Shown: piece by piece, positions 7,458-15,557 of the stretch | Layout: the number at the start of each line of letters is the position of its first letter | Numbering within the stretch: the first letter of the stretch is position 1 | Assembly: GCA_038143065.1 (NCBI GenBank) | Contig: JAYQLI010000035.1 | Span: forward strand, 2,112,894-2,176,893 | Direction: 5' to 3' | Source: Rhodospirillales bacterium | GTDB taxonomy: Bacteria > Pseudomonadota > Alphaproteobacteria > Bin95 | DNA: 64,000 nt | Program-made: the position numbers and the translations under genes | The notes under the pieces: model-generated | What the model was told of the DNA's origin: nothing | The model's database searches: none | What the model saw: only the letters and a program-made list of their open reading frames with translations

Positions 7458-8279
7458 TTACCCGTCTAGCCGAGCGCGAATGGCGCGAAGATCCTGCCAG
7501 GCTTGTTTTTTGCGCCGGCTGACGCAGCAGGAATGCAGGGTGGAATGTAGGCAAGGCTGGGATAGATAGGCCACTAGGTTCATCGCGCGTTTGGAAATCA
7601 ATCCATCGACCGCGGAGGCGAGTTATGCCAGTCGTCTCATTCAGTAAGCTTTGAGCAGCTGGTCCACCAAGAAGCACTAGCACTTTTGGACCAATCAGCT
7701 CAATTTGTCTCAACAAGAAGGGTAGAGTCGCATTTCGTTCTTCTGGTGTAGGCGTTCTGTTTCCAGGTGGACGCCAGTACAAGGTATTGGTCACGTACAC
7801 TTCTGACCGATTAAGGCCGATAGAGGCCAACATTCGGTCGAGTAATTTTCCACTAGGCCCAACAAATGGGATTCCTTGACGATCTTCTTCAGCGCCAGGA
7901 GCTTCGCCAATCAACATTAATTTTGCTGCCAGTGCTCCATCACCAAAAACTGTATTTGTAGCAAAGCGCTTGAGCGTCCCACCGTCAAAACCTTCAAGGC
8001 ATTGGCGAAGCTCTTCTAGAGTTGATACGCTTTTAAGGTCTTCGAAAGAGGTTTTTAATTGCCCTGAGTCGGCTAGCCTTACCGGGGAGTGGAATCGTTA
8101 AAACGTGTTTGGGCCAGTGATTTAGCCCCAAGTTTTTCCGTAGCTGGTGGATCTGAACTTTCAAAACGGTTCCAAGGAACCTCTTGAACGACGTCGGTTG
8201 CTCCTGCCTCAACTTGCCAACGCAACATTGAAAGCAACGTTTGCCGGTCTAGTCCGTCTATTGATTCGTTCGCCACCAT
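7458..8279 (-). CDS. Uracil-DNA glycosylase family 4 (two apparent frameshifts)
   Basis: IGEAPGAEED, PFVGPSG, WRPPGNRTP, TFHPAFLLR; alphaproteobacterial N-terminal LRWQVEAG segment. Confidence 0.9.
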
Positions 8280-8379
8280 GGCGCTGTTATAACTCCTGCC
8301 CTATCTTTAAAACATATGTATACTTTAGGTTGATGCGTTAGCGTCGCCAAGTAACTGTACTGGGAGAGATAGGAGCGTC

Positions 8380-10024
8380 ATGGAACGGGAGAGTATGGAG
8401 TTTGATGTCGTCATTGTTGGTGGAGGGCCCGCGGGACTGTCAGCAGCAATCCGTCTAAAACAACTCGCGGCCGAGTCAGGTAGTGACATTAGCGTTTGCT
8501 TGCTCGAAAAGGGCTCTGAAATCGGTGCGCACATTCTTTCTGGTGCTGTGCTTGATCCGCGCGCATTAAATGAGCTTTTACCCAATTGGAAGGAATTAGG
8601 AGCACCGCTTAACACGCCAGTGAAACGCGACAAGTTTTTATTCTTAGATAAGAAGGGTGGCTTTCGGGTTCCTGAGTTCGCAATGATGCCAGCAATGAAA
8701 AACCATGGGAATTTCATTGTCAGTCTAGCAAACGTTTGCCGCTGGCTGGGTGAGCAAGCAGAAAGCGTTGGAGTTGAGATTTATCCGGGCTTCGCAGCCG
8801 CTGAGGTGTTATTTCACAGCGATGGCTCAGTCAAAGGCGTTGCCACCGGGGATATGGGAATAGGAAAGGATGGAGAGCCTAAGGCTGGTCATGAACCAGG
8901 CATTGAACTCCATGCTAAATATACTTTCTTTGCCGAGGGGTGCAGGAGGCCATCTTGGCAAGCAGCTCATGGAAACATTTAATCTTCGAGATGAAGCCCA
9001 GCCACAAACCTATGGAATAGGTATTAAGGAGTTATGGGAAGTAGATCCGGAGAAGCATGAGCAAGGTCTAGTCATGCACACCGCTGGGTACCCCATGGAT
9101 CGAAATACGTATGGGGGATCATTTCTTTACCATCTTGAAAACAATCAAGTGGCATTAGGATTTGTAATTGGCCTCGATTACGAGAACCCATACCTTTCAC
9201 CCTACGATGAGTTTCAACGCTGGAAATCTCATCCAGTTATCAAGCAAACCTTAAAAGGAGGTAAGCGCATAGCTTATGGTGCGCGTGCATTAAACGAGGG
9301 TGGCGTCCAATCTCTTCCAAAATTGGTATTTCCGGGAGGTTGTTTGATCGGATGTGATGCAGGCTTCCTAAACATGCCCAGGATCAAGGGAAGTCATGCC
9401 GCCATGAAGACAGGCATGCTGGCGGCAGAGGCTGCTTTTGAGCGTGTTTCAAAGGGTTCAGAGGGCCGAGATGAATTGACAGAATACCCAGAGGCTTATC
9501 GGGCTTCTTGGTTACATAAGGAACTTTGGTTGGCTAGAAATGTTCGACCAGCATTCAAGTGGGGCCTGATTGGTGGTACCCTGTATGCAGGGATTGACCA
9601 AGTGCTCCTGCGTGGTCGTGCTCCTTGGACATTGTCGCACCACGGTCCTGACCATGCTGCGATCAAGCCAAAATCAGAATTTAAACCAATTGATTATCCG
9701 AAATATGATGGTGAGATTACTTTCGACAAACCATCTTCTGTGTATTTGTCTGCGACCAATCATGAAGAGGATCAGCCAGTACACCTGACCTTGAAAGATC
9801 CATCGGTACCAATTCAAACAAACCTCGAATTGTATGATGCGCCAGAACAACGATATTGCCCGGCGGGGGTGTATGAGATTGTTGCTGACAATGGAGAGCC
9901 GAGATTGCAGATAAATGCTCAGAACTGCGTTCACTGCAAAACCTGCGATATTAAGGACCCAACTCAGAATATTGTTTGGGTAACACCAGAAGGTGGTGGA
10001 GGACCAAATTACCCTAACATGTGA
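8380..10024 (+). CDS. Electron transfer flavoprotein-ubiquinone oxidoreductase (one frameshift near 8945)
   Basis: GGGPAGL FAD motif, GAHILSGA, 4Fe-4S motifs CPAGVYE and [13 protein letters not shown]. Confidence 0.96.
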
Positions 10025-10031
10025 TCGTTCT

Positions 10032-11714
10032 ATGGGACGTTTACTTTTTCTCTATTCTTTTTGGCCTTCGGCGTCGCGACGCAAACAATTTGTTCTGCTT
10101 CTGCGGCGCCAGCGGGGTTTGCTTCTGCTTATCTCTCCGGATTAGTAGCTGAGCAAAGAGGAGAAATCGGCAGAGCCTCTACTTACTTCGCACACGCTCA
10201 AGAGACTGCACCAGAAACACCAATGCTCCAAAGGCGTGTTATGCGTTTGCAGCTTTTGGAAGGCCAATTTGATTCGGCAGCGGAAGCAGCCCGTCTTATG
10301 GCCAAATCAGGTGACGATAACTTTCCTACAACACTTATTCGTTTAGTAGATTTCCTTAGAGATGGAAACTTTAAGGGTGCCCTCAATCTCGTAAACAGGC
10401 CAGGGTCTAATGGTCTTTCCCCTGTGGTTACGGTTCTGGCAACGGCTTGGTCACAAGCGGGAGAGGGTAAGGTTGATGAAGCGATTAAGGTCCTTACTGA
10501 TTCAGCTAAGGAAAATCCGGATTTACAAACATTATTTTTATTGCACGCTGCTTTTTGGCAGAACAAGCCACTCGTTTAGATATTGCTCGATGGCTGTATG
10601 AAGAATCCCTTTCAGCAGCCGAAGCTAAGAAACAGACTATTTCACCTCGATTAATTCATGCTGTTTCCGGATTCTTTGATAGGAGGGGCATGTCAACAGA
10701 AGCGGCAGAGGTGCGCGCAAAAGGATTTTCTTCCCTCGACATTATGTCACCAGCACAGTCAATTGTTACATCTCCTACTGAAGGCTTCGCAGAAGCGTTA
10801 TTCAATATTGCTGGAAGTCTCTATGGAGACCGGCAATACATACAGGCTCTGAGCTATACTAGATTATCGGAAGTTCTTCGGCCGAATGATCCATCTGTGC
10901 GTTTTACAACAGCGCAAATTTTAGAAGCTTTAGGCAGATATATGGACGCGGTTAAAGCTTATGAATTGGTTCCAAAAGTAGGGTCATACGGCTGGCAATC
11001 TAGGCTGCGTCTGGCGGAAAGTCTTTCAGACGCCGGCGATAGTGAAGGCGCTATAAACGCGATGCGCCATCTGCTCGATATGGAGCCAGATGAGCCTCAG
11101 GTAGCGTTAACGCTTGGAAATATCCTGCGCGCCCATAATTACTTTCCTGAGGCTGTAAAAGCTTACGATGAGGCTGTTCGTCGTCAGGCAAAACTTGGTA
11201 AAATTGATGCGTGGCTTCACTACGCGCGAGGTGTTGCGCTTGATCGTTCAGGTCGTTGGCCTGAGGCAGAAAAAGAATTTCTCGAATCTCTCAAGACGCT
11301 ATCAGAAGAGCCATTGATATTGAATTATCTCGGCTACAGCTGGATTGATCGTGGAGAAAATATAGAGCGTGCATACGGCATGGTTTCTCGCGCAGTAGAA
11401 TTAAGACCGGATGATGGTTTCATTCGTGATAGCCTTGGCTGGGCAGAGTTCGAACTGGGAAATTTGAAAAGGCGGTTATTACGTTAGAGCTGGCCATTGA
11501 AATGCAGCCTATTGATCCCGTCATTAACGAACACTTGGGCGACGCTTATTGGCAGGTAGGTCGCTTCCGTGAAGCTCGCTTCCAATGGAGGCGCGCACTC
11601 TCGTTTGAGCCTGAGGATAAGCAAGTTTCAATAATCGAAACAAAATTAAAGTGTGGAATCGATGGCTGTCCAACCCCTATCGATGCCAGTAACAAGAGCG
11701 ATAATGGTAACTAA
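10032..11714 (+). CDS. Exported tetratricopeptide-repeat protein (three apparent frameshifts)
   Basis: Signal-like N-terminus; LNYLGYSW, DSLGW, EHLGDAYWQVGR; conserved ETF-QO/TPR/ispE order. Confidence 0.88.
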
Positions 11715-12578
11715 AGGCAGTTGGCAAATTTCACGGGCTCCTGCAAAGGTAAATCTTAGTCTTAAGGTTGTGGGGCGCCGAGCTGATGGCTATCACTTGC
11801 TTGATAGCATCGTCGTATTTTCAAATTTTGGAGATCATCTGGCGCTTAAGCCTACACTATCTGCGCCAACTCTAAGTATTAGAGGGCCATTCGCGGCTAA
11901 CCTTGAAAGTTCCCCAGAGAATAACTTGGCCTTCTTAGCAGATCGTGCATTTGCTGAGGCATTTGGCGGCACTCGTTGTGACATACGACTCTGGAAACGC
12001 TTGCCAACGGCAGCAGGCATCGGTGGTGGCTCTGCCGACGCTGCAGCGGTCTTGCGCTTAAAGGCCAAGCTAGCTGGAATACCTTTAAATGATACCGACC
12101 TTAACATGGTTGCTCTTTCATTGGGCGCTGATGTTCCAATGTGCTTGCGGGGTAGATCGGCGCGTGTGGGGGTGTTGGGGAAACACTGATTGAAGCCCCT
12201 ATGATGCCTGCGCTTCCTTCAGTATTGGTGAATCCAGGAGTGATGCTTCCAACACCGTCGGTCTTCAAACTGCGATCTGGTCCTTTTTCAACTTCAACAA
12301 CGCTGCCCGAGGCTTGGAATGATTTGTGTGAGGTTTCGGAAGCCGTTAATGACCTTGGGAATGACTTAATGCAGGCGGCTATTCACATAGAGCCTGTCAT
12401 AAAAGAAGTTTTGTCAAACCTCAAAGCAATGGCAGGCCTAAATGTGGCCTCAATGAGCGGCTCCGGTGCTACATGTTTTGGTTTATTTGATGATTTAAAA
12501 TCTGCACGCCAGGCTGCACGCGCACTTAAACGTCGATGGCCAGGCTGGTGGGTTGCTGAGATGGTATTGAATCCATAA
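11704..12578 (+). CDS. ispE: 4-diphosphocytidyl-2C-methyl-D-erythritol kinase (frameshift in G run near 12170)
   Basis: APAKVNL, GYHLLDS, AAGIGGGSADAA, LGADVP, MSGSGATCF. Confidence 0.95.
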
Positions 12579-12616
12579 TACTTACTTCGAGATTCTTTAA
12601 GGTAGCAGTAAATTAG

Positions 12617-14353
12617 ATGGAGGCCTCTATGGAGAGAGAAGCAGCCTTATGGCCTAGAGGTGCGAAAGCGGCTGGAGCCAAGCCGCTCGCAAAGCGCCTA
12701 GATAGTCTTGAAGGCAAAACTGTTGCCTTTCTTTGGGATTATATGTTTCGCGGCGACGAAATTTTTCCACTTATAGAACGTGAACTGTCCTCCAAGTATT
12801 CTGGCATTAAATTCATTGGATACGACCATTTTGGCACCACGCATGGAGGTGGTGAAAGAGAGGTTATTCGCACTCTTCCAGAGCACATAAAAACACTTGA
12901 GATAGACGCAGTCGTCTCAGGTATGGGTTGTTGAGGTAGCTGTACGCCCGCCGTGTTGCGGGCGAGTGCAGCTGCTGAAGCCGCCGGCATTCCAACGGCA
13001 AGCTTAGTTTGCGATGGTTTCCTCGGTCAGGGTCGATCTACAGCAGCCGGTATAGGTATGCCAAATATTCCTCTGGCGCAGGTTACTGGTCATGTCGATG
13101 TCCAGACAACTGATGAGTTAGTCTCAAACATAGTTGGTGTTACCATCCCAGCAGTAATCAAGGCTCTTACCGAAGATCCACCGCCTGTTGCTTCTCCTAC
13201 TGAGCCAAAACCAACAGATGTTGTATTTCAGGGTACGTTCGAGGAAGTGAACCAGTATTTCTACGAGAATGGCTGGACTGATGGGCTTCCCATAGTGCCG
13301 CCTACGCTAGAGCGGGTCCAAGCATTTTTGAAGTTTACTGATCTTCCTCAAGATACGGTGCTCGGCCAGGCACAGCCCGACAATAGAATTGCGACCGTTT
13401 GGAATGCAGCAGTAAACGGCGTTATGGCGGGATGTAAGCCAGAATATATGCCGGTGATGGTAGCCGCCATTCAGGCAATGTGTGATGAGGAATATGGGGT
13501 TGAGCACTCTGGAAATACACCAGGGGCGGAAACTTTGCTGATTCTTAATGGCCCTATAGCCCAAGAACTTGGATTCAATGCAGAGCAGGGCGTACTTCGC
13601 GATGGCATTATGGCCAACACAGCTCTTGGGCGTTGGTGGAGGCTTTGCCTGAAAAACATTGCTGGTTTTCGCCATCAACAAACCGACAAAGCAACCTTTG
13701 GGGGAACCTGGAAGGTTGCTATGGCGGAAAATGAGGACGTTTTGCAAGAAATTGGCTGGCCACCAATGGCCGCAGAGTTTGGATTTAAACTTGGCGAAAA
13801 TGCTATCTCTATCGCTCGATTTACTGGTGGAGATGTTGTTACTAGTGTTTTTGGGGATAAGGCGGAATCTATTCTCCCCTATTTGGCAGATGCGCTTGCA
13901 CGTATATCGGCATGGCAACTTGTTTTCACTGTTGGCATGTCGACGGGGACTTATCGTCCTCTGCTAATCATTTCTCCAATTTTGGCACGAACTATCGCTA
14001 AGTCTGGGTGGTCTAAAGATCAGGTGAAAGACTATCTGTTTGAGAACGCTCGAATTCCAGCTCATAAGTTCGAAAAATACATGGGTGAATATACTAACCT
14101 AATTCCAGGACGCCAAACTCTCTATGACATGGCGCAGAAGGGAGAGGCACCACCAGTTTTTGGCGTGTCAGATGATCCAGAAAGATTGGTACCTATCGTT
14201 TTTGAGGCTAAAGATTTTCTGATTGCAGTTTCAGGAGATCCGGGACGAACAAATGCCTATGTAATGAGCCATAATGGGCAGCTTGGTTATACTGTTGGGG
14301 CTGGTATTAAGACCCCACAGAATTGGCCAGCTTTGCTCGACGATCTGGACTAA
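12617..14353 (+). CDS. UGSC-family selenoprotein fused to a conserved domain of unknown function; 578 aa with Sec at codon 106 (TGA 12932-12934)
   Basis: ORFs 12617-12934 and 12953-14353 share a frame; read-through gives AVVSGMGC-U-GSCTPAVLRASAAAEAAGIP; SECIS follows; C-terminal GWTDGLPIVPPT and NGVMAGCKPEY motifs. Confidence 0.88.
12935..12976 (+). promoter_or_regulatory. Bacterial SECIS element
   Basis: GGUAGCUGUAC pairs with GUGCAGCUGCU (11 bp including GU); upper stem GCCCGC/GCGGGC; apical loop CGUGUU with G at position 2, 17 nt after UGA. Confidence 0.8.
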
Positions 14354-15557
14354 GTATTTGAACTTTGTGTTGTTGCTGGTGATGCTATCAATACAAGGGC
14401 CATAAAAAGTGCTGGGATAGCTATAAGTGCATAGCCAGCTATATAGCTTCCGCTGGCTAGACCCAGTCCGAATAGCATCGGGTAAAATACTTGACCTGCT
14501 GAGCCAAAAGCGAGCACCCCACCCGTCATGCGTCCTGCTTCTCCAGGCTGTGCTAGGCGAGCGGCTTCAGATAACAGAACACCATGCCAAGAAAGAACCG
14601 ATAGGCTTATAAGACCCATCACGCCAAAAATCTGCCAATCTTCCCATCCAGTTCCGAAGAACCCCATGGTTATGGTTGAGATTGCCATCATCGCTGCTAA
14701 ACAGGCTAGCAGCATTTTTGGTTTTATAAGGGTGCTACCAACCCAACCCCAAAGTATTCGGGCTGGAACGGCTATTAGTGCTGCAGCGCCAAAAAGAGGA
14801 CCAGCCTCCTCAACAGTATAGCCCAGGGCCTCGTGTAAGTAGGTTACGCTAAAGCCCATGAAAATTGACTGCATTCCCACAAAGCAAAAAGCTGCCATGG
14901 CTAGTGAACGCATTTCAGGGGCATTTAGCACTTGTCGAATGGTTAAAGGGAAGTCTGAAAATTTTGGACGCGCTATTGGGTCTCGGTCTGCGTCAAATTC
15001 ATCGCGCAGGGGCTGTAATGCTACCGCGATTAAAATGCAAACACATGCAAGCCCGAGAAGAGCTGGCCTCCAGCCCAATGAAGCTGCAATTGGAGCCAGC
15101 ACCATACCAGAGATGGCTAGCCCTGCGGGCACGCCGGTTTGCTTAATTGAAAAAACTAGTGGTGCCCATTTGGGGGTGCATATTTGGCAAGTATCTGTGA
15201 GCTTGCGGGAGTTGCAACGGTTGAGCCTGCACTGTTCAAGAAAATACCTAATATCAGTGGAGGAAGCGCTAACCAGGGCTGCGCTAGCAAAGCCGCAGCT
15301 GCAAGACCAATTGCCATAGCTAAACAGCCAATTTGGCTTGTGCGGAGCGCACCCCAGCGACGCAAAGCTCCACCGCACCCTGCCATCACCAGGATAGCAA
15401 CAGCTGCGTAGCTCCAAGTGTAGCCGAGGACTACCTTGGGATCGATTCCTAAGTCAGCGGCCACAGTTGGAAACATTGCGGGCATCCCAAGCTTCGCAGT
15501 AGTCGCTATAGTCTGCTGGATTAGCATAGCTACGATGGCAATAATTAAAATTGGCAT
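14350..15557 (-). CDS. MFS transporter (frameshift near 15170)
   Basis: Hydrophobic two-halved pattern; FSIKQTGVPAG and ARILWGWVG motifs across two overlapping ORFs. Confidence 0.85.

Follow-up and report, generated by a model that had tools for sequence, protein, structure and literature searches.

The closest described relative of the gene reported here is the UGSC-containing protein, introduced in 2007 as a selenoprotein of unknown function in a paper that names Hyphomonas neptunium among its carriers (PMC1976440). The Global Ocean Sampling survey of 2008 ranked UGSC as one of the selenoprotein families most abundant in surface waters, with 255 selenocysteine (Sec) sequences from 37 samples and 21 cysteine (Cys) homologs, proposed a thioredoxin-like (Trx-like) fold as likely, and reported a 'UGSC/Unknown_1' fusion selenoprotein (Zhang & Gladyshev; PMC2398784). 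In the available portions of two reviews, published in 2022 and 2026, no function is given to UGSC, and the later one describes this selenoprotein group as largely uncharacterized; likewise, a full-text literature search, extending over the accessible parts of its sources, found no functional study of UGSC. Here we analyze a 64,000-nucleotide stretch of the genome of a Rhodospirillales bacterium (hereafter the window), in which two consecutive open reading frames (ORFs) had been predicted, from the DNA letters and their translations, to form one UGSC selenoprotein gene joined by read-through of an in-frame UGA codon. Both the family and the fusion have thus been described before, and the window gene is an additional member. 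To this we add an apparent kinship of the Sec region with the GrdB and PrdB proteins, an uncatalogued partner domain, a near-fixed pairing of this domain with UGSC, and thioredoxin domains on the unfused partners.

Two further systems resemble the window protein at the Sec site. Protein B of the glycine and proline reductases works with a second, substrate-binding polypeptide and needs reduction by a dithiol or by thioredoxin. The proteins GrdB, GrdF, GrdH, and PrdB (PF07355, TIGR01918, TIGR04483) carry, like UGSC, a U-x-x-C motif that comes after a beta strand and precedes a helix and the sequence E-x-A-G-I-P-T; in contrast, their hosts are Stickland fermenters, whereas the host of the window gene is an aerobic-type aquatic bacterium. 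Mammalian thioredoxin reductase has a C-terminal Gly-Cys-Sec-Gly redox center, and the window motif shares this G-C-U-G tetrapeptide with its vicinal Cys-Sec pair. However, the window motif is internal, sits where a strand meets a helix, and has the U-x-x-C cysteine after it, and Pfam searches revealed no homology of the window protein to pyridine-nucleotide disulfide oxidoreductases. With the UGSC family itself (PF24696, NF041046), the window protein shares the domain, the U-G-S-C motif, a UGA-encoded Sec with a downstream hairpin, and an aquatic bacterial host, but it differs in being fused to a 385-amino-acid (aa) domain and in scoring below the NCBIfam equivalog cut-off. It also carries Cys before Sec, where the standalone UGSC copies of the same genome have Asp. 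As regards the 'UGSC/Unknown_1' fusion, the accessible text of the 2008 paper gives it no fold, gene linkage of unfused forms, or thioredoxin link (PMC2398784).

The best explanation of the data as a whole, to which we assign a probability of about 0.85, is that the window carries one gene for a 578-aa selenoprotein composed of a UGSC domain and its near-obligate partner domain, which together would form a two-part reductase (Table 1). The ORFs at 12617-12934 and 12953-14353 share a reading frame and are separated by one TGA (12932-12934), in the context GGT TGT TGA GGT AGC TGT. When the TGA is read as Sec, the product has 578 aa and a mass of about 62 kDa; it was analyzed with C substituted for U. 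Its G-C-U-G-S-C motif combines U-x-x-C with a vicinal Cys-Sec pair. The Pfam UGSC model matches residues 11-185 (E = 1.6e-29, 103.7 bits against a cut-off of 25) over profile positions 3-171 of 172, and because this match spans codon 106, the TGA lies in the middle of the domain. A search of 5.8 billion proteins gave at least 4930 matches among the 8000 candidates scored. Among the 120 matches listed, 12 are full length (578-607 aa), and in all 12 the alignment continues through the stop, codon 106 being invariably Cys; most of the others have 454-471 aa and consist of the part after the TGA only. The position of Cys105 is occupied by Ala in most Cys forms.

The TGA is also conserved among genomes and samples. 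Sixteen related loci were collected from the GTDB, comprising Alphaproteobacteria at 81-98% identity and a Comamonadaceae metagenome-assembled genome, Acidimicrobiales, and other Actinomycetota at 50-60%; codon 106 is TGA in 16/16 of them, over the whole range of 50-98% identity, and Cys stands immediately ahead of Sec in every one. Two further orthologs (L055 and L056, from the class sample described below) likewise carry the TGA, which brings the total to 18 of 18 orthologous loci. A variant motif, U-S-T-C-C in place of U-G-S-C, occurs in the fused homolog L054 (G025:C2:2981025-2982614). Four public runs of other samples (X1, X5, X15, and X16) yielded contigs covering the gene. Those of DNA run X1 show five differences and those of RNA-library run X15 show 32, all outside the TGA triplet and without an indel, whereas one X16 contig (record 6) bridges the TGA with its sole difference at 12883. 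For run X5, in which no indel was found either, 17 of 20 differences are listed, so that the TGA is only partly checked there. Across 12400-14400, no indel was seen in the contigs of these other samples.

Downstream of the TGA lies a predicted GC-rich hairpin that we regard as a candidate bacterial selenocysteine insertion sequence (SECIS). Its upper stem of six GC base pairs with the loop CGUGUU (12946-12963) begins 11 nt past the UGA, in keeping with the 11-nt UGA-to-stem spacing rule from work on Escherichia coli fdhF, and the three standalone UGSC genes of the same genome have hairpins at the identical spacing. The upper stem and loop are present in 15 of 17 sequences, the window included; they are absent in L025, and one end of the stem is unpaired in sequences of the L015 type. 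In L018 and L019, a G-C pair of the stem is exchanged for A-U. Over 19 sequences, pairing is retained in 79.6% of cells, compared with 25-48% when the partner strand is slid, and three pairs are altered on both sides. The stop-free fusions on contig 36 (C36) and in genome G098 were considered as a Cys-form control for the hairpin and dropped, since the redox motif is wholly absent in both.

The genome (4.63 Mb in 52 contigs) encodes selA (468 bits), selB (435 bits), and selD (280 bits), each over its cut-off, and a tRNA-Sec gene is located about 32 kb past the window end. One in-frame TGA within a U-x-x-C motif is also present in each of five other genes of this genome, three for UGSC and two PrdB-like. 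Given the conserved G-C-U-G-S-C motif in the UGSC domain, the downstream hairpin, and the presence of selA, selB, selD, and tRNA-Sec, decoding of the UGA at codon 106 as Sec by the SelB-SECIS route is, on sequence grounds, most likely. The original prediction that the two same-frame ORFs form one protein of 578 aa is therefore upheld by the Pfam match across the stop, the 18 orthologous TGA codons, and the 12 Cys homologs; its expectations of homologs with Cys or TGA at codon 106 aligning across the stop (12/12 Cys, 16/16 TGA), of a Cys directly before Sec, and of Sec genes in the genome agree with what was found, and the TGA holds in the X1, X15, and X16 contigs, which are data different from the raw source reads. 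As to side observations, selB directly follows selA, and the two PrdB-like genes represent another selenoprotein family in an aerobic-type alphaproteobacterium. A molybdopterin oxidoreductase gene (L042 10650-12964; C35:918649-920963) consists of a 226-aa and a 522-aa ORF in different frames, that is, of a frameshift and not of a Sec codon.

Table 1. Coordinates of the selenoprotein gene, its parts, and related genes of the same genome (positions without a prefix are those of the window).
Feature	Coordinates	Strand	Basis
Whole selenoprotein gene	12617..14353	+	578 codons and stop; UGSC Pfam match across the TGA; Cys homologs align end to end
In-frame UGA, putative Sec residue 106	12932..12934	+	TGA or Cys at this codon in relatives; unchanged in contigs X1, X15, and X16
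G-C-U-G-S-C redox motif	12926..12943	+	Residues 104-109; Cys105, Sec106, Cys109
UGSC domain, residues 11-185, five predicted beta-alpha units	12647..13171	+	PF24696, E 1.6e-29; AlphaFold2 secondary structure
Partner domain, residues 195-578, uncatalogued family	13199..14350	+	AlphaFold2 model and homolog clusters
Cys273 in the motif AVNGVMAGC(K/R)PEYMP	13433..13435	+	Codon TGT; sole near-invariant Cys of the partner domain
Candidate bacterial SECIS hairpin	12935..12976	+	Fold energy -40.8 kcal/mol, z -2.5
Second UGSC-partner fusion	C36:11552-12991 (L045 7349-8998)	-	No stop; U/C-x-x-C motif and Cys273 replaced
PrdB-like (GRDB family) genes with in-frame TGA	C35:2092875-2093273 (L046); C35:1681335-1681730 (L047)		

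At the boundaries of the gene, an alternative start codon, ATG 12629, is preceded by GGAGG at 12619-12623, 5 nt upstream, and may be the real start instead of ATG 12617. The apparent start of the second ORF, GTG 12953, lies within conserved A-V-L codons with no Shine-Dalgarno sequence ahead of it; the original prediction had likewise noted no clear ribosome-binding site there. The claim that the other split genes of the window break by frameshift was borne out by comparison with the 98%-identical locus L013, against which several genes in 8000-12600 and 14350-15417 are frameshift-split or shortened: the electron transfer flavoprotein-ubiquinone oxidoreductase (ETF-QO) is represented by 200 + 384 aa in the window and 547 aa in L013, the tetratricopeptide repeat (TPR) protein by 172 + 310 and 574 aa, the GHMP kinase by 178 + 125 and 298 aa, and the major facilitator superfamily (MFS) transporter by 355 and 402 aa. 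These splits look like assembly indel errors rather than pseudogenes. The domain of about 390 aa to which UGSC had been said to be fused corresponds to the 385-aa partner domain, the fusion itself having been reported before (PMC2398784). The statement that standard annotation would call two hypothetical proteins stood in part: mostly the post-TGA fragment of 454-471 aa is found in databases, but some entries are named 'UGSC family (seleno)protein' by NCBI, and these are still of truncated length.

The AlphaFold2 (AF2) model of the whole protein, built from a 13-sequence alignment, has a predicted local distance difference test score (pLDDT) of 79.4 and a predicted template-modeling score (pTM) of 0.83. 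In this model, residues 35-185 form five alternating strand-helix units, and the Sec106 motif lies between strand 98-104 and helix 109-122. The proteins listed as fold matches to the UGSC part resemble Rossmann or flavodoxin folds and include no thioredoxin; the UGSC fold is accordingly predicted to be Rossmann-like and not thioredoxin-like, and the thioredoxin fold proposed earlier (PMC2398784) does not agree with the modeled topology of five strand-helix units. At the level of the whole protein, a fold search against the PDB gave no match at E ≤ 0.001, and a sequence-profile search against the PDB gave none at E ≤ 10. Judged by its profile scores, the window protein is a domain-level member of UGSC and not an NF041046 equivalog.

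Comparison with protein B of the glycine and proline reductases was made in both directions. The window protein matches PrdB weakly (TIGR04483, E = 0.082, 12.3 bits against a cut-off of 300), and reciprocally a PrdB-like protein of the same genome gives a weak UGSC_fam match (E = 0.0049); the sequence that the two have in common is local and reads D-A-V...U-x-x-C...E-x-A-G-I-P-T. Comparison of a profile with a single sequence reached probabilities (Prob) of 19 and 27 only, whereas hhalign of 22 UGSC N-terminal domains against 22 PrdB-like proteins gave Prob 94.9 and E = 4.3e-8 over 67 columns, with Sec placed on Sec and the second Cys on Cys. From these alignments we conclude that the UGSC Sec site appears to be a distant relative of the GrdB/PrdB Sec site. 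The Pfam GRDB model had no match in the window protein at E ≤ 1, and because of this UGSC is placed, by its sequence, outside the GrdB/PrdB family.

The partner domain has no matching model in Pfam or NCBIfam. Its family nevertheless comprises 4275 clusters (50% identity) at E ≤ 1e-3 and 625 at E ≤ 1e-30; among 73 long-coverage homologs, 55 also contain Pfam UGSC, and no other family recurs. The domain is probably the 'Unknown_1' of the 2008 survey (PMC2398784). Its AF2 model, from a 73-sequence alignment, has a pLDDT of 94.1 and a pTM of 0.93. Cys273 is invariant in 13/13 sequences and at least 90% conserved in the 73; the other conserved residues include W220-x-D-G-L-P-x-x-P-P-T230, N267, R339, and E371. 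The best PDB matches found with Foldseek are class I (4Fe-4S) fumarate hydratases (E = 1.9e-4, prob 0.90, about 410 columns), at a template-modeling (TM) score of 0.23-0.25 and a root-mean-square deviation (rmsd) of about 17 Å. Class I fumarate hydratase was rejected as the family of this domain, the profile comparison with the fumarase subunits of the same genome giving Prob 0.4 and 1.6, as was membership of the iron-sulfur (Fe-S) hydro-lyases, since the domain has one conserved Cys and not three. In other words, there is a fold match to these enzymes but neither profile similarity nor a three-Cys cluster site, and the modeled fold is treated here as one without a close solved relative. Pfam, fold, and homolog-domain searches also revealed no likeness to PrdA or GrdE, the pyruvoyl-bearing partners of protein B.

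The UGSC and partner domains recur together. Five UGSC domains and seven partner-domain copies are present in this genome, and every one of the five UGSC domains is fused or adjacent to a partner: the modules are the window fusion, the fusion on contig 36, and three standalone Sec-UGSC genes, each of which adjoins one or two standalone partner-domain genes on the same strand. One orphan copy of the partner domain lies beside Rieske dioxygenase genes. Across the class, 121 genomes of Alphaproteobacteria were sampled, with each genus represented once and this genome among them; UGSC occurs in 17, and 36 of the 38 UGSC matches contain one in-frame TGA. In the 16 other carriers, manual comparison of coordinates placed a same-strand partner match within about 0.5 kb of 32 of the 33 UGSC matches, and the one that lacks it is cut by a contig end. 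UGSC is thus fused or adjacent to its partner in 37 of 38 cases in the sampled Alphaproteobacteria, which shows the two to be near-obligate partners there. The recurrent architectures are the partner domain followed by UGSC, UGSC followed by two partner domains, and the UGSC-partner fusion, and the combination is common to thousands of database proteins. Three of these (P0145, P0191, and P0196; 845-1254 aa, secreted-looking) contain one UGSC domain, with the motif C-G-C-G-L-C, and two partner domains, and one of the three also has copper amine oxidase N-terminal domains. The stop-free fusions of C36 and G098 may represent a non-redox subfamily; the end of the C36 fusion is overlapped by a cyclase (PF04199) gene, and a similar copy is found in G098 (L052).

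A link to thioredoxin comes from the unfused partners of the architecture in which the partner domain precedes UGSC. Eleven such ORFs were compared, one from this genome and ten from seven others, and 10 of them have an N-terminal extension of about 150 aa with CPTC and V-P-T-L motifs. A profile of these 10 extensions searched against the PDB found thioredoxins (best E = 4.6e-6; 60 of 60 among the matches listed), with CPTC aligned to the active-site C-x-x-C and V-P-T to the cis-proline loop. The extension of L041 searched alone gave nothing meaningful in the PDB and only a weak TraF match in Pfam (E = 0.036). Partner-thioredoxin-reductase fusions were also considered and are unsupported, the long frames concerned (1160 and 1025 aa, in two high-GC genomes) having no Pfam domain. 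In one cluster of this genome, a gene resembling thioredoxin reductase (TIGR01292, 190.7 bits, below the cut-off) lies 14 nt downstream of a UGSC gene and two partner-domain genes. The same cluster (C35:1734000-1751000, L043) continues on the same strand with CofC-like, luciferase-like, and CofG/H-type radical SAM genes, which belong to F420 biosynthesis or use. Among 17 loci of the fused form, an MFS transporter is a neighbor in four and an acyl-CoA dehydrogenase in three. The neighbors of the five modules (MFS transporters, an HlyD-type protein, acyl-CoA dehydrogenases, a LysR regulator, a dienelactone hydrolase, and a cyclase) hint at small-molecule catabolism.

By analogy with protein B, the UGSC-partner pair can be pictured as a two-part reductase, a proposal that we hold at roughly even odds. 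In this picture, Sec106 and Cys109 of the UGSC module, at the N-terminal end of a helix, would act as the selenol/thiol couple, and Cys105 would be an additional resolving thiol in the subfamily of the window protein. The partner domain would hold the substrate in a pocket of conserved residues including Cys273, Arg339, and Glu371, where Sec106 and Cys109 would attack it near Cys273. The resulting selenenylsulfide would be re-reduced by thioredoxin, which in the fused window form, having no thioredoxin domain of its own, would be a free one. The position of the paralogous modules among transporter and catabolic genes suggests that the substrates may be small organic molecules. A wider proposal, which we advance tentatively and at somewhat less than even odds, is that UGSC and its partner constitute a previously unrecognized class of thioredoxin-driven Sec-dependent reductases, in which the Sec module would share its ancestry with protein B, the partner would be the catalytic subunit, of a fold without a solved relative, and the modules would be substrate-specific paralogs.

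Other explanations accept the selenoprotein and dispute its chemistry. The C-U-G-S-C motif together with Cys273 could bind a metal or an Fe-S cluster, with the partner being a non-redox enzyme, for instance a hydro-lyase. The 4Fe-4S fumarate hydratases found as the best fold matches of the partner point in this direction, as does the presence of three chalcogen residues within five positions together with one conserved partner Cys. However, the low TM score, the large rmsd, and the negligible fumarase profile values given above argue against it; a single conserved Cys of the partner is not the expected three, Cys105 is mostly Ala in the Cys forms, and the thioredoxin domains on unfused partners indicate thiol-disulfide chemistry. 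We therefore consider metal or cluster binding unlikely. Slightly less likely still is that UGSC acts as a general Trx-like antioxidant or disulfide oxidoreductase to which the fused domain is a client or a regulatory appendage. The U-x-x-C motif and the published suggestion of a 'likely Trx-like fold', in the part of that paper available (PMC2398784), favor such a role, and the ESM Atlas, searched with a standalone homolog, gave clusters that were unnamed or automatically named only, among them 'thioredoxin family' and 'thiol-disulfide oxidoreductase'; these names are, however, without Pfam support, the UGSC domain is predicted to have five beta-alpha units with Rossmann- or flavodoxin-like fold matches, its pairing with the partner is nearly fixed, and many polar residues of the partner are nearly invariant, as is typical of active sites.

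Still more remote are the explanations that deny read-through, and a sequencing error or a split gene at the TGA is very unlikely. If the UGA terminated translation, two proteins of 105 and 466 aa would be made, or the gene would be broken; ORF calling with translation table 11 does return two ORFs, the 466-aa fragment is present in databases, and other genes of the window are split. Against termination stand the position of the stop in the middle of a Pfam domain, the TGA in all 18 orthologous loci from several phyla, the frameshift nature of the other breaks, which are absent from the 98%-identical L013, and the GTG at 12953 inside conserved codons without a ribosome-binding site, in addition to the hairpin and the Sec machinery, so that we rate it as highly improbable. 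Lowest of all, with hardly any probability left to it, is an error for TGT, TGC, or TGG. The assembly does contain several frameshifts relative to a near-identical genome, but the errors seen are indels and not substitutions, and the TGA recurs in the contigs of other samples and in 16/16 related genomes.

The reading of the locus as one gene for a selenoprotein reductase has to be weighed against several observations. With respect to decoding, contigs from RNA libraries are no proof of transcription or of read-through, and conservation of the hairpin is confounded by the conserved T-P-A-V-L-R codons, with modest covariation. Scanning 12000-15000 against Rfam (E ≤ 10) gave three chance-level matches, and neither a SECIS nor any other family of relevance was among them. 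The assembly has many frameshifts, and the selA Pfam match (C35:594757-595869, L001) extends past a TAA close to its 3' end, the ORF itself having 429 aa; either an indel of the assembly or a selA of slightly reduced length could account for this. With respect to family and function, the window protein reaches 49.5 bits against a cut-off of 125 for NCBIfam NF041046 (UGSC_fam), and the similarity to GrdB/PrdB is limited to the 67 aligned columns. The redox motif is lost in the fused homologs of C36 and G098 and in P0132 and P0260, and therefore the partner domain can exist without a redox-active UGSC. The fused window form has no thioredoxin domain, clustering of the 17 fused loci revealed no conserved neighbors beyond close relatives, the data indicate no candidate substrate, and the reductase model draws on analogy and gene linkage only.

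The selenoprotein call itself is routine, and the joined reading puts right a split annotation common in public databases. The fixed partner, the thioredoxin domains on unfused partners, and the apparent kinship of the Sec site with GrdB/PrdB lead to concrete experiments on function, for which the fused form of the window, with both parts on a single chain, offers the simplest construct. If the proposed class of reductases is real, the five modules of this bacterium, located near MFS transporters, acyl-CoA dehydrogenases, Rieske dioxygenases, a cyclase, and F420 genes, would reductively cleave small organic compounds, and one of the most abundant aquatic selenoproteins would have a role in aerobic aquatic bacteria.

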